In this document: positions 6,103-39,608 of the stretch, one piece after another
Position numbering within the stretch: position 1 is the stretch's first letter
Layout of the letters: every line of letters starts with the position of its first letter
Sequence record: PZ379184.1
DNA from: a phage
Direction: 5' to 3' (one strand)
DNA: 39,711 bases
Made by a program: the position numbers and the translations under genes
The notes under the pieces: generated by a model
Told to the model about the DNA's origin: nothing
Databases searched by the model: none
Seen by the model: only the letters and a program-made list of their open reading frames with translations

Positions 6103-6125
6103 CCTAAACTATCACTATAGGATTA
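6103..6125 (+). promoter_or_regulatory. Phage RNAP promoter (phi1.1 position)
   Basis: AAACTATCACTATAGGATTAG; consensus match. Confidence 0.75.
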
Positions 6126-6165
6126 GACTCAAGGTCATGACTCAAAGTCGTGGCCTTCATGATTA
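6125..6165 (+). promoter_or_regulatory. RNase III processing site candidate (R1.1-like): AGACTCAAGGTCAT..GTGGCCTTCATGATTA
   Basis: Resembles recalled T7 R1.1 (ACTCAAGGTCAT...GTGGCCTTTATGATTA); same element recurs at 13224-13261 and 36548-36588. Confidence 0.65.
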
Positions 6166-7901: not shown

Positions 7902-8159
7902 ATGTTTAAGAACTTAATGTTCAATCGTTATACCAGTACATTCCACCTGTCTCACAACCCATTCGCTTGCATTAAGCGTAACGAGAAGCTGGGCTACTTC
8001 GGGAAGGCCGTTAAGCTGTCACCTACAGTCTTCGCTCTGATTACTCCGAGCAAAGCTGAAGAGGCTCTCCAGAAGCGTGAGTCCAACGTACCTGTGGTCT
8101 ACACTAAGTGGCCTCGCGTTCGTCTGTTCGTTGAGGTAATAAAGGAGCTAACAGTATGA
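7902..8159 (+). CDS. Hypothetical protein (85 aa) at the T7 gene 1.6 position
   Basis: SD AAGGAGG 6 nt before ATG 7902. The track ORF from 7848 would include the promoter, so the internal ATG is preferred. Confidence 0.6.
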   Translation: MFKNLMFNRYTSTFHLSHNPFACIKRNEKLGYFGKAVKLSPTVFALITPSKAEEALQKRESNVPVVYTKWPRVRLFVEVIKELTV

Positions 8160-8629
8160 ACGCACTTGAACAAGAGATTATCATTAAGTTGGTAGATAAT
8201 AACGAAGGTCGCCCAGATGATTTGAATGGCTGCGGTATTTTCTGCCATAATGTCCCTTGCTACCTCTGCCCTGTAAATATCAATAAAAAGATAACCTTAG
8301 GTGAAATCCGAGCGATGGACATACGTAAGCCTAAACTGGAGAAACCAGAGGTAACTACTACAGACGACCAGCCTTACGCTAAGGCTATCGACGACGTACG
8401 CAAGCCGTCCCACTATCAGGTCTTTGACGGTGTGGAGTCCATTGAGATTATCGCTCGGTCCCTGACTGTCAGCGAGTTCCGTGGTTTCTGCATGGGTAAC
8501 GTCCTGAAGTATCGACTCCGAGCTGGTAAGAAGTCCGAGCTGGCTACTATGGAGAAGGACCTAAACAAAGCGGCCTTCTATCAGGAGCTGTTCGACCTGC
8601 ATAAAGGTAAGTGCTATGCTGCCGAGTGA
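8156..8629 (+). CDS. 1.7: gp1.7-like nucleotide (dGMP/dTMP) kinase
   Basis: IIKLVDNNEGRPDDLNGCGIFCHNVPCYLCP, KITLGEIRAMD and GNVLKYRLRAGKKSEL match recalled T7 gp1.7. Confidence 0.85.
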   Translation: MNALEQEIIIKLVDNNEGRPDDLNGCGIFCHNVPCYLCPVNINKKITLGEIRAMDIRKPKLEKPEVTTTDDQPYAKAIDDVRKPSHYQVFDGVESIEIIARSLTVSEFRGFCMGNVLKYRLRAGKKSELATMEKDLNKAAFYQELFDLHKGKCYAAE

Positions 8630-8711: not shown

Positions 8712-8866
8712 CTGAGGTTGAGAAGAAATACATCGTGGAGCTTGAGGGTCGCGTCCAGTCCTTCGAGGTTCCTGTGTACGCAAAGTCTCTTGAAGAGGCT
8801 ACCATGAAGTCCCAAGAGTATGAGGACGCTGGGTTTGTGGTCGGACGGATTCGTCCTGAGACCTAA
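8708..8866 (+). CDS. 2: gp2-like inhibitor of host RNA polymerase (52 aa)
   Basis: [14 protein letters not shown]...[10 protein letters not shown] resembles recalled T7 gp2 (SFEVPIYAETLDEA...AGFEVTRVRP). Confidence 0.75.
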
Positions 8867-8884
8867 ACTATCACTGTAGGACAG
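8862..8884 (+). promoter_or_regulatory. Phage RNAP promoter variant (CTGTAGG instead of CTATAGG)
   Basis: TAAACTATCACTGTAGGACAG; one mismatch at -3. Confidence 0.6.
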
Positions 8885-8924: not shown

Positions 8925-9623
8925 ATGGCTAAAGAGCAACTGAAGACTTTCACCACTCCGGTAGCTGGTATCGTTGAGCCTTACGCATGGCTGAACAGAG
9001 CAGACACCAAGTTTAACGAGCGTGGTGAGCATAAGGTTAACCTGACATTCAACCTGAGCGACCCGAAGGTCCGTAAGATGATTGATGTCTTACAGAAGAT
9101 TCACGACGATGCGTATGCGAAAGCACTTGCAGACCACGAGAAGAACCCACCTCAGGTTCAGCGTGGCAAGAAGCCTATTGAACCACGAGAAGGCGACATG
9201 CCGTGGATTGAGAATGGTGACGGTACTGTTACCCTGAAGTTAAAATGCTTTGCGTCTTACCTTAAAGATGGCAAGTCCGAGCCTATCGTATTACGGTTCT
9301 ACGACACCGATGCTAAACGCATCCGTGACGTCCCGAATATTGGCGCTGGGTCTAAGCTGAAGGTCAAGTTTAAAGTCCTGCCGTTCAAGTGGAACGCTGC
9401 GACGGGTGCAAGCGTTAAGCTCCAGCTTGAGTCCTGCCTTCTGGTAGAACTGAAGGAGTGGAAAGGTGATGGTAATGGTGGCGATGGTGGCTGGGGCGAT
9501 GATGAAGACCTCGGTACTGGCTACAAAGCGTCAACCGATGGTGACTTCGGGTCTGATGACTTCGGTGACGATGGTTCCGAAGGTGGGGATGACTCCAACT
9601 CTGGTGGCGATTACGACTTCTAA
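8925..9623 (+). CDS. 2.5: Single-stranded DNA-binding protein (T7 gp2.5 homolog, 232 aa)
   Basis: Same length as T7 gp2.5; GKKPIEPREGDMPW, VPNIGAGSKLKVKFKVLPFKWNAATGASVKLQLES and acidic C-terminal tail ending DF. Confidence 0.92.
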   Translation: MAKEQLKTFTTPVAGIVEPYAWLNRADTKFNERGEHKVNLTFNLSDPKVRKMIDVLQKIHDDAYAKALADHEKNPPQVQRGKKPIEPREGDMPWIENGDGTVTLKLKCFASYLKDGKSEPIVLRFYDTDAKRIRDVPNIGAGSKLKVKFKVLPFKWNAATGASVKLQLESCLLVELKEWKGDGNGGDGGWGDDEDLGTGYKASTDGDFGSDDFGDDGSEGGDDSNSGGDYDF

Positions 9624-10075
9624 TGGCCCAATGGTCTGCAAAACGGGGGCACTCTGTGGGTGCCTACCGCTCTGGACTTGAAGCCAAGAACCAGCAGTGG
9701 CTGGAACAGAACGGCGTCAAAGCGGAGTACGAAAGCCATTATATCAACTATGTGATTCCGGCTTCCGACCACAAGTACACACCAGACTTTATCCTTCCCA
9801 ACGGTATCATCGTGGAGACCAAAGGTATCTTCGATAGTGATGACCGTAAGAAGCACCTTCTGGTACGAGAACAGCACCCAGAGTTAGACATTCGGTTCGT
9901 GTTCTCAAGTTCCCGCTCCAAGTTATACAAAGGGTCTCCGACCACGTATGGCGCATGGTGCGAAAAGAACGGCTATAAGTATGCCGATAAGTTCATCCCG
10001 GTTGAGTGGCTCAGAGAGGCGACTGTACGTCTGCCTTCCGGTATCCTCATCCCCAAGAAGAAAGGAGTTAAGTGA
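9623..10075 (+). CDS. 3: Endonuclease I, Holliday-junction resolvase (T7 gp3 homolog)
   Basis: YVIPASDHKYTPDFILPNGIIVETKG and DDRKKHLLVREQHPELDIRFVFSSSRSKLYKGSPTTYG match recalled T7 gp3. Confidence 0.92.
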   Translation: MAQWSAKRGHSVGAYRSGLEAKNQQWLEQNGVKAEYESHYINYVIPASDHKYTPDFILPNGIIVETKGIFDSDDRKKHLLVREQHPELDIRFVFSSSRSKLYKGSPTTYGAWCEKNGYKYADKFIPVEWLREATVRLPSGILIPKKKGVK

Positions 10076-10545
10076 TGACTCAGAAATATAGACTTAAGGT
10101 TAGTTGCTGCGGGTGGCCTAAAGGTACTATCGTTACGAAATGTGCGAAAGACCCGTGTACAGCATCTGGAATTGTTCTGGTGGAATCCACTGAGCGTGGC
10201 CACTTCAAGCACGGAGCAGCAGGTTATAACACTCAGCCTGACGGTATGTGGGGGGCGTGGGTTGCAAAAGCACATCTTGAGGAAATCGTAGAGGATAAAC
10301 CTCAAGTCATGCCAGCTTCGAGCGTACCGCCTGTGACTGTGAAGCGTGAAGTCCTGACCATCAACAAGATTGGTGTAGGGCAGACGTTCATCGTCCACGG
10401 TAAGCCTGACGAAGTGTACGTGAAGATTAGCAACTCTCACGTCTTCAACCATAAGTTGCTCCAGATGCACACGACTGACGCACATCGCTTCCAGTCACAT
10501 CTGAATCTAGTGGTCGTAGAATTGGTGGTGTACAATGGTAAGTAA
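10075..10545 (+). CDS. Hypothetical protein (about 156 aa) inserted between endonuclease I and lysozyme
   Basis: SD AAAGGAG 7 nt before ATG 10075 (track ORF starts at an upstream GTG, 10072); overlaps the lysozyme start by 11 nt. Confidence 0.6.
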   Translation: MTQKYRLKVSCCGWPKGTIVTKCAKDPCTASGIVLVESTERGHFKHGAAGYNTQPDGMWGAWVAKAHLEEIVEDKPQVMPASSVPPVTVKREVLTINKIGVGQTFIVHGKPDEVYVKISNSHVFNHKLLQMHTTDAHRFQSHLNLVVVELVVYNGK

Positions 10546-10993
10546 GGTACAGTTCAACCCACGGTCCCGGACTGACGCTATCTTCGTTCACTGTTCGGCT
10601 ACCAAGCCAGATATGGACATCGGGGTAGAGACCATCCGTATGTGGCACAAGCAGCAAGGATGGCTGGACGTAGGCTACCACTTTATCATCAAACGTGATG
10701 GCACTGTGGAAGAGGGTCGCCCGGTCAATGTCGTAGGGTCACACGTTAAGGACTGGAACTCCAAGTCCGTAGGCGTCTGCCTTGTAGGTGGAATTGACGC
10801 TAAGGGCAAGTTTGAAGCTAACTTCACTCCGGCCCAGATGAACTCACTGCGCAACAAGCTGGCTGACCTGAAGGCCCTGTATCCTCAGGCAGAAATAAAA
10901 GCACACCATGATGTAGCACCTAAGGCGTGTCCAAGTTTCGACTTGCAGCGCTGGCTATCTACCAATGAACTGGTAACTTCCGACCGTGGTTAA
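10535..10993 (+). CDS. 3.5: N-acetylmuramoyl-L-alanine amidase / T7 lysozyme (gp3.5 homolog)
   Basis: VQF..R..TDAIFVHCSATKP, WLDVGYHFIIKRDGTVEEGR, HHDVAPKACPSFDL and C-terminal ELVTSDRG match recalled T7 gp3.5. Confidence 0.93.
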   Translation: MVSKVQFNPRSRTDAIFVHCSATKPDMDIGVETIRMWHKQQGWLDVGYHFIIKRDGTVEEGRPVNVVGSHVKDWNSKSVGVCLVGGIDAKGKFEANFTPAQMNSLRNKLADLKALYPQAEIKAHHDVAPKACPSFDLQRWLSTNELVTSDRG

Positions 10994-11017: not shown

Positions 11018-11233
11018 ATGATTAAACTTATCGAATTTCTTGGTCGTCTGGTGGTGCGTGGTTATCGTCGTGCTGCGGTTATGGAACGAAAGGTAGAAAA
11101 GAAGACTGCTGACAGTGCGGCTGATGCAGCTGCTCTGGCTGACAAGCTGACCATCGCGTCACTGGAAGCTGGCATGAAGGCACGTCAAGCTGACACCAAA
11201 GCTGACCAGTTGGCTCAGTTCTTCAAAGCCTAA
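11018..11233 (+). CDS. Hypothetical small protein (71 aa), N-terminal hydrophobic, alanine-rich
   Basis: SD AAAGGAG before ATG; resembles a small T7-family protein that I cannot assign to a gene number with certainty. Confidence 0.55.
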   Translation: MIKLIEFLGRLVVRGYRRAAVMERKVEKKTADSAADAAALADKLTIASLEAGMKARQADTKADQLAQFFKA

Positions 11234-11252
11234 ACTATCACCTTAGGGATGG
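11230..11252 (+). promoter_or_regulatory. Degenerate phage promoter-like sequence followed by hairpin GGGACA..TGTCCC
   Basis: TAAACTATCACCTTAGGGAT has two mismatches in the -4/-3 region; hairpin 11251-11270 then TTTGTTCGC. Confidence 0.35.
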
Positions 11253-13053: not shown

Positions 13054-13218
13054 GTGTTTAAGAAACTTAAAGCTCGCTACCATCGGTTCATGTACAAATG
13101 GTGGAGTGATGAAGCAGCCTGCCTGTCCAACATTCTGGGAGACCAAAGGTTCGACTCTAAGGCATGGAAGAGAGCTAACCGGAAGTTTATGTATCACTTC
13201 TTGCGTACAGACTTCTAG
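13054..13218 (+). CDS. Hypothetical small basic protein (about 55 aa; 66 aa if started at GTG 13018)
   Basis: SD GGAGGA 8 nt before GTG 13054; start uncertain. Confidence 0.35.
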   Translation: MFKKLKARYHRFMYKWWSDEAACLSNILGDQRFDSKAWKRANRKFMYHFLRTDF

Positions 13219-13223
13219 GTCTA

Positions 13224-13261
13224 GACTCAAGGTCATTCACATCGAGTGGCCTTTATGATTA
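13224..13261 (+). promoter_or_regulatory. RNase III processing site candidate (R4.7-like)
   Basis: AGACTCAAGGTCATTCACATCGAGTGGCCTTTATGATTA; copy of the element at 6125 and 36548. Confidence 0.65.
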
Positions 13262-36282: not shown

Positions 36283-36542
36283 CGCAGATGGACTTAGAGA
36301 AGTTCCTCTTGATGCTTGATACTGAACGTGCTCGACTCATGCTGCAAGACTTGCGGGATGACACTAAGCGTTCACCTCAGCTCTACAACTCCATTGAGAA
36401 GCTGCTTGCTCGTCACAACTTTGTGTTAAGCAAGGTGTCTGTGGACGAGAAGACGCTGGCTGATATGGAGGCCCTGAACGCAGAGTACGATAGGGTTCTT
36501 TCAGCGACTGAGGATAATGACACAGGGTATGGTGTTCAATAA
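36279..36542 (+). CDS. 18: Terminase small subunit (T7 gp18 homolog)
   Basis: LLMLDTERARLMLQDL and KRSPQLYNSIEKLLARH match recalled T7 gp18. Confidence 0.88.
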   Translation: MTQMDLEKFLLMLDTERARLMLQDLRDDTKRSPQLYNSIEKLLARHNFVLSKVSVDEKTLADMEALNAEYDRVLSATEDNDTGYGVQ

Positions 36543-36547
36543 GTGTT

Positions 36548-36588
36548 AGACTCAAGGTCATTACTATATGTAGTGGCCTTTATGGTTA
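36548..36588 (+). promoter_or_regulatory. RNase III processing site candidate (R18.5-like)
   Basis: AGACTCAAGGTCATTACTATATGTAGTGGCCTTTATGGTTA; third copy of the conserved element. Confidence 0.65.
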
Positions 36589-39545: not shown

Positions 39546-39608
39546 TCTCACAGTTCAAGAACCTCAAGTCTCCCCATAGGCCCTCTTTCAGTCCAGACAA
39601 AGGCCCTA
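39546..39608. repeat. Right copy of the terminal repeat, starting TCTCACAGT as in T7; only 63 bp of it present here
   Basis: 39558-39608 equals 1-51; TCTCACAGTTCA matches the recalled first bases of the T7 genome (TCTCACAGTGTA). Confidence 0.7.

Follow-up and report, generated by a model that had tools for sequence, protein, structure and literature searches.

T7 devotes several small proteins (gp2, gp5.5, gp5.7, gp5.9, gp4.5 and Ocr) to the binding and inhibition of host factors. They do not look like enzymes, they are restricted to particular lineages, and their genes lie among the essential early and middle genes of the phage. The protein discussed here, gp3.2 of the K1F-like phages (Kayfunavirus), is likewise small, non-enzymatic in appearance, lineage-restricted and encoded among such genes, but it has no sequence relationship, nor any demonstrated structural one, to the T7 inhibitors; and we know of no description, for any of these, of a constant core combined with a swappable module, the architecture that gp3.2 possesses. 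In T7 itself gene 3, for endonuclease I, is presumably followed directly by gene 3.5, for lysozyme, with no gene 3.2 between them. Orthologues of the gene described below are named 3.2 in K1F (YP_424930), 3.01 in CR44b and gp3.2 in EcoDS1 and Dev2. Those of K1F, CR44b and EcoDS1 agree with the gene in our sequence in length, in lying between genes 3 and 3.5 and in the overlaps at either end, and do not differ from it structurally. Their N-terminal module shows 65–87% nucleotide identity to ours, compared with 97–98% in gene 3. Dev2 (from Cronobacter) and SH3 and SH4 (from Citrobacter) have at the same position a short gp3.2 of 74–75 amino acids, homologous to residues 87–156 of our protein (80% identity in the case of phage SH3), but without the N-terminal SH3-like module and without the proline-rich linker. 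In the searchable literature we found no functional study of any of these proteins, and mentions of gp3.2 only in the tables of genome announcements.

The window (the whole stretch of phage DNA that we analysed, 39 711 nucleotides, record PZ379184.1) has an exact direct repeat at its ends (1–51 and 39558–39608, probably extending to 39711), compatible with a terminal redundancy of the T7 type some 154 bp long, and contains about eleven to a dozen copies of a 20-nucleotide motif, CTAAACTATCACTATAGG(G/A)A, which is the consensus of repeat families D1, D3 and D5 (Table 1). These copies are likely to be promoters of the phage's own RNA polymerase. With a terminal repeat and phage promoter copies, the window is apparently a whole linear Kayfunavirus genome. 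None of the motif copies lies inside gene 3.2, and since the nearest are at about 8863 and about 11229, gene 3.2 would belong to a transcription unit comprising genes 2.5, 3, 3.2 and 3.5. Scans for sigma-70 promoters and for terminators gave sites no more numerous than in shuffled sequence, and there was no Rfam match anywhere in the window.

Three further features of the window may be recorded here. The sequence GGCCTGACTGATAGTCA(C/T)TAAC (repeat family D17) is present in three copies in the early region (718–747, 1035–1064 and 1763–1792), the first and last of them shortly upstream of an ATG, and may represent early-region processing or regulatory sites. The repeat TAGACTCAAGGTCAT is found at 6118–6138, 13216–13236 and 36541–36561, in a longer form of about 52 nucleotides at 6123 and 36546; the copy at 6118 is just 3' of a phage promoter copy, and the element may be a conserved leader or an RNase III-type site. 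Finally, a 157-amino acid DUF3310 protein (E 6.7e-21) encoded at 8156–8629 has an N-terminal cysteine cluster, CGIFCHNVPCYLCP.

Table 1. Gene 3.2, its parts, its neighbours and the phage promoter copies, in window coordinates
Feature	Position	Strand	Remarks
Phage promoter copies	~2785, 6104, 7854, 8863, 11229, 17750, 20589, 21577, 26359, 33635, 38950		Repeat motif
Nearest upstream promoter copy, CTAAACTATCACTGTAGGAC	8863..8882	+	Before gene 2.5
Gene 3, endonuclease I (upstream neighbour)	9623..10075	+	Pfam Phage_endo_I, E 2.8e-81
Shine-Dalgarno sequence, AAGGAG	10062..10067	+	7 nt 5' of the ATG, within the end of gene 3; read from the sequence
Gene 3.2, coding sequence	10075..10545	+	ATG at 10075, TAA at 10543-10545; 156 amino acids plus stop; orthologue of PHROG 16385
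N-terminal module, type A, residues 1-72	10075..10290	+	Predicted SH3-like small β-barrel; motifs GWPxGTIVTKC and QPDGMWGAW
Proline-rich linker, residues 73-86, EDKPQVMPASSVPP	10291..10332	+	From alignments; dN/dS 0.115
Conserved C-terminal core, residues 87-156	10333..10542	+	Defining part of the family; dN/dS 0.11
Overlap of genes 3.2 and 3.5, 11 nt	10535..10545	+	ATG of gene 3.5 at 10535
Gene 3.5, N-acetylmuramoyl-L-alanine amidase of T7-lysozyme type (downstream neighbour)	10535..10993	+	Amidase_2, E 1.1e-16
Next downstream promoter copy, CTAAACTATCACCTTAGGGA	11229..11248	+	Family D5; before primase/helicase gene

Is the open reading frame between genes 3 and 3.5 really a gene? Its length alone does not prove it, since an antisense open reading frame of 170 codons (9973–10485, minus strand) overlaps it; this antisense frame is interrupted in five of six relatives, and was set aside as a chance occurrence. 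The frame at 10075–10545 is a real gene, because it is preserved in more than 250 homologues, occupies a constant position and has been under purifying selection: in a comparison of seven phages with the same form of the protein, dN/dS was 0.25 for residues 1–72 and 0.11 for residues 87–152, with dS values of 1.17 for the N-terminal and 0.47 for the C-terminal half. A first-pass annotation had already called this frame, with endonuclease I and lysozyme as its neighbours, and both its coordinates and its neighbours stand (Table 1), as does its status as an extra gene with respect to T7 (for which the gene order is that of the annotation and of textbooks). The signals for its expression are likewise borne out: a Shine-Dalgarno sequence lies 7 nucleotides upstream; the stop codon of gene 3 (TGA, 10073–10075) ends with the A that begins the ATG of gene 3.2, giving an overlap of one nucleotide; and the 11-nucleotide overlap with gene 3.5, which is annotated also in K1F, CR44b, LM33_P1, EPr2, ST31 and yong1, points to translational coupling of the two genes. 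Coupling is thus tight on both sides. An internal start at M80 would give a separate core protein, but reading by eye showed no Shine-Dalgarno sequence upstream of that codon. In one database protein (P0122), residues from about 5 to 60 correspond to the +1 frame of this region (window 10142–10291), after which the gp3.2 frame is resumed; this suggests paired frameshifts in the record, or errors in its assembly, and not a second gene.

Profile searches place the protein in PHROG 16385, a family of 'unknown function', along its whole length (residues 1–156 against profile positions 1–157, E 8.7e-91), and its C-terminal part (residues 87–156) also in PHROG 15211 (E 7.4e-40). Kayfunavirus LI10P1 has 99.8% nucleotide identity in this region and an identical gp3.2 protein, and many K1F-like phages of Escherichia coli, Salmonella, Citrobacter, Hafnia and Providencia show 88–97% nucleotide identity. 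(The region is also 93% identical to that of a phage deposited as 'Enterococcus phage EFA-1', GenBank MT350292, for which the host assignment looks doubtful.) The statement in the first-pass annotation that no homologue could be recognised thus fails as regards sequence, there being more than 250, and holds as regards function: all are annotated as 'hypothetical'; no Pfam, NCBIfam or PADLOC profile matched the window protein in scans that covered the whole protein, each of its halves and eight divergent relatives, two of these relatives giving chance-level matches to PADLOC defence-component profiles; and sequence and profile searches of the PDB gave a single chance-level match (E 0.16). To a large extent, then, the extra gene proves to be a known conserved gene of the T7 family, K1F gene 3.2, of a family with no assigned function: judged from these matches, it has been catalogued already, and never studied.

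Alignments divide the window protein into a moderately conserved N-terminal part (residues 1–72), the proline-rich linker (73–86) and a strongly conserved C-terminal part (87–156). Comparison of the homologues shows that the family consists of one conserved core of about 70 amino acids and an optional, exchangeable N-terminal module. The N-terminal modules that can precede this core are of seven types or more, none of them related to another, which we term A (that of the window protein), B, C, D, E, F and G; types A and D also occur in tandem in a three-domain form of 226–227 amino acids (P0085, P0099 and P0101). At the other extreme is the core standing alone, with 74–75 amino acids, in Citrobacter phage SH3 and, according to a published genome table, in Dev2 and related Citrobacter phages, and there are natural in-frame deletions (P0137 and P0139) that have removed most of module A and left the core intact. 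The proline-rich linker is kept behind modules A, B, D and E, and is missing from the stand-alone form of 74 amino acids. When the module types and the core were compared with each other by hhalign, no probability exceeded 36% (for a 16-residue hairpin shared by type D and the core), so that an origin of the two halves by tandem duplication is unsupported. Since the core can stand by itself, and has persisted where the module was deleted, it is there that the conserved function must reside.

How widespread are these forms? An exhaustive profile search, run against 1.84 billion representative proteins, yielded only 17 clusters; in their sequences, and in those from a search with the core alone, the core is the one constant element. 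Among 50 697 deposited phage genomes there are 221 with the core; the full type A form is present in 55 of these, type D in about 24 and type B in about 12, while types C, E and G each account for one or two. In a search with phage records evenly sampled, about 45% matched residues 87–156 only. Among the deposited phage genomes the N-terminal modules were found exclusively at the gene 3.2 locus. The module does not follow the host in any simple way, since the phages with a given module type infect several genera.

The first-pass annotation had drawn attention to the cysteines near the N-terminus. The window protein does have four (C11, C12, C23 and C28) within its first 28 residues, but only C23 is kept across the family. 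It is invariant in the 108 type A relatives, of which 18 have C11, 30 have C12 and just four have C28; positions 11 and 28 are among those of highest entropy in the protein. A single cysteine is present in 44 of the 108 modules. In these 108 sequences there is nothing resembling the three or four conserved Cys/His ligands of a zinc finger or similar cysteine-rich protein, and the 'CC...C...C' pattern is, by this comparison, a peculiarity of one isolate and not a metal site. The idea that gp3.2 is a metal-binding, zinc-finger-like protein or a small nuclease could draw further on two invariant histidines of the core, H122 and H132. It is nevertheless highly improbable: conservation largely refutes the version based on the cysteines, and with the motif not a family feature the zinc-binding or nuclease reading is left without support. 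No HNH, zinc-finger or nuclease profile in Pfam or NCBIfam matched gp3.2, whereas a neighbouring open reading frame in phage STP-SP3, serving as a positive control, matched HNH_3 (E 9.8e-15); and at the position of H108, the sole histidine of the core with a spacing like that of HNH enzymes, relatives have D, N, R or A.

Structure prediction was informative for the N-terminal module. AlphaFold2 modelled residues 1–70 with pLDDT values of 88–96, and the module is predicted to be a five-stranded small β-barrel with the topology of SH3 domains; W14, W59 and W62 are invariant in the module alignment. At the level of fold, then, it would belong with SH3 and SH3-like barrels such as those of spectrin, Grb2, PsaE, KorB-C and the N-terminus of Hpy99I, from which it differs in having no profile membership in any SH3 family: neither the whole protein nor the module alone matched the Pfam families SH3_1/2/9 or SH3_3/4/5 at E values up to 10. 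Foldseek comparison with BFVD and the PDB, from which both models of the core were left out, gave no match at E 0.001 or better. A barrel of this kind is too generic to point to a particular ligand.

Within the type A module, the only positions with an entropy above 2.5 bits are 11, 28, 30, 31, 43, 64, 66 and 67. The variable stretches (about 9–12, 28–34, 39–44 and 64–67) fall mostly at non-strand positions of the model. At 25 hand-picked variable positions dN/dS was about 0.7, compared with 0.12 at the remaining, scaffold positions. This does not demonstrate positive selection, because the value is below 1 and the sites had been chosen for their variability; relaxed constraint accounts for the variable positions equally well.

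Might the barrel act together with the amidase encoded by the next gene? It could be an SH3b-like, cell-wall-binding lysis helper, or else gp3.2 might modulate the amidase in the latter's second role, the inhibition of phage RNA polymerase. The 11-nucleotide overlap, with its implied coupling, would suit such a partnership in those relatives in which gene 3.5 follows directly, but other genes can intervene between the two (see below), SH3b-type Pfam families (SH3_3, SH3_5 and similar ones) gave no match even at E values up to 10, reading of the sequence by eye revealed neither a signal peptide nor a membrane segment, and the part of the protein that has been conserved is the core and not the SH3-like module. 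We regard this partnership as quite unlikely.

The core itself is recognised by the pattern V..VG..F...Y...SNSH.F....QMHTT...RF, the columns of which do not vary even among the most divergent members. The motif Y.(K/V).SNSH.F....QMHTT...RF occupies residues 115–139 of the window protein, where the sequence reads YVKISNSHVFN..QMHTT..RF. The structure prediction that succeeded for the module gave nothing usable here: pLDDT was below 50 when the whole protein was modelled, and 57.8 for the core alone with the most diverse alignment. Its invariant polar residues (S-N-S-H, Q-M-H-T-T and R) could, instead of a binding surface, make up a site for catalysis or for a metal, as might happen in an oligomer.

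With a pI of 9.5 the core is mildly basic, and gene 3.2 adjoins, and is coupled to, gene 3 within the 2.5–3–3.2–3.5 unit. These features would suit a nucleic-acid-binding helper that recognises DNA or branched DNA, as small β-barrels do in Sso7d, the integrase C-terminal domain, KorB-C and Hpy99I, and that modulates endonuclease I or gp2.5 in recombination or in the breakdown of host DNA. Positive charge is, however, not a consistent property of the family (the pI of the N-terminal modules ranges from an acidic 4.4 to a mildly basic 8.9, and that of the divergent P0136 core is 6.3), and T7, which going by the first-pass annotation lacks gene 3.2, has the same gene 3. Such a helper role seems to us somewhat unlikely.

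The position of the gene is fixed: in all the relatives examined, down to core identities of 36–40% and including P0129, P0130, P0136 and P0142, with cores 40–64% identical to that of the window protein, it lies between genes for Phage_endo_I and Amidase_2 proteins, in a gene order like that of T7. Adjacency to the amidase gene is not obligatory, since in two cases another gene intervenes. In Salmonella phage STP-SP3 (OR485019) a 149-amino acid HNH gene (L001:1751–2200) is found between gene 3.2 and the amidase gene, and looks like a homing-type insertion; in a metagenomic T7-like contig (L010:6456–6812), an open reading frame of 118 amino acids with no Pfam match, situated between the P0136 gene and the amidase gene, is another insertion at this hotspot after gene 3.

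The locus is also an island of divergence. Across Kayfunavirus, nucleotide identity to the window is 97–98% in gene 3, 73–93% in the core and 86–97% in gene 3.5, whereas the type A module shows 65–87% identity, or is replaced, or is absent, and the break in identity coincides with the stop codon of gene 3. In Citrobacter phage SH3 the gp3 protein is identical to that of the window, yet the core stands alone, at 80% identity. In the most distant phage the core is 40% identical, compared with 67% for gp3 and 55% for gp3.5; because it diverges somewhat faster than its neighbours at such distances, we describe the core as well, but not exceptionally, conserved. A reason at the DNA level (such as a promoter) for its conservation can be dismissed, the core dS of 0.47 being greater than that of the flanks (0.11 and 0.21) and no phage promoter lying inside it. 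The GC profile is flat and gives no hint that the DNA was recently acquired from a foreign source.

The sharp boundary at the gene 3 stop codon raises the question of whether the N-terminal modules do anything much at all. They might be debris of recombination or of mobile elements, accumulated at a hotspot after gene 3 and fused in frame to a core that alone matters, and this would accord with the natural deletions in P0137 and P0139, with the homing-type HNH gene at the same locus in STP-SP3, and with the many sampled phage records (about 45%) in which only the core is matched. We think it unlikely, in view of the behaviour of module A: purifying selection on its scaffold (dN/dS 0.12) has been as strong as on the core, the module is predicted with confidence to be a compact domain, and it is intact in more than 100 sequence clusters.

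What, then, might gp3.2 do? We tentatively favour the possibility that it is a non-enzymatic accessory protein, a binding or adaptor protein in which the core is combined with a specificity contributed by a lineage-variable N-terminal module. Binding is favoured over catalysis because there is no enzyme signature, because each of the parts is only about 70 amino acids long, and because the predicted fold of the N-terminal part is typical of binding modules. On this proposal gene 3.2 would be a middle-period (class II) gene, co-transcribed and translationally coupled with those for endonuclease I and the amidase, so that gp3.2 would be made together with the proteins of DNA metabolism. The core would carry the conserved function of the family and contact a conserved partner, and the N-terminal barrel would add, through its variable loops, a second binding specificity that differs among lineages. 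The locus would then supply an accessory factor for interaction with, or take-over of, the host, rather than an enzyme of DNA metabolism. The first-pass annotation had also raised the idea of an accessory factor, which remains plausible, and gains from the module swapping and from the divergence island.

A bolder version of the binding or adaptor proposal may be sketched, although in this full form we consider it on the unlikely side. Gp3.2 might be a modular counter-defence or host-take-over adaptor, the core of which docks onto a conserved machine while each barrel neutralises or recruits its own host protein, one that varies among strains. Cassettes would then be exchanged at a hotspot just after gene 3, and this would help to set host range below the level of the receptor in K1F-like therapeutic phages. 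Kayfunaviruses are widely isolated as candidates for phage therapy directed at E. coli K1, Salmonella and Enterobacter. We found no description in the searchable literature of the combination seen here, of a constant core with swappable modules and a sharp island within a block that is otherwise 97–98% identical. If the modules do not determine specificity, gene 3.2 simply joins the other small orphan genes of the T7 family; if they do set specificity for the host inside the cell, the locus would offer a compact handle for explaining, and for engineering, the range of strains that these phages can infect.
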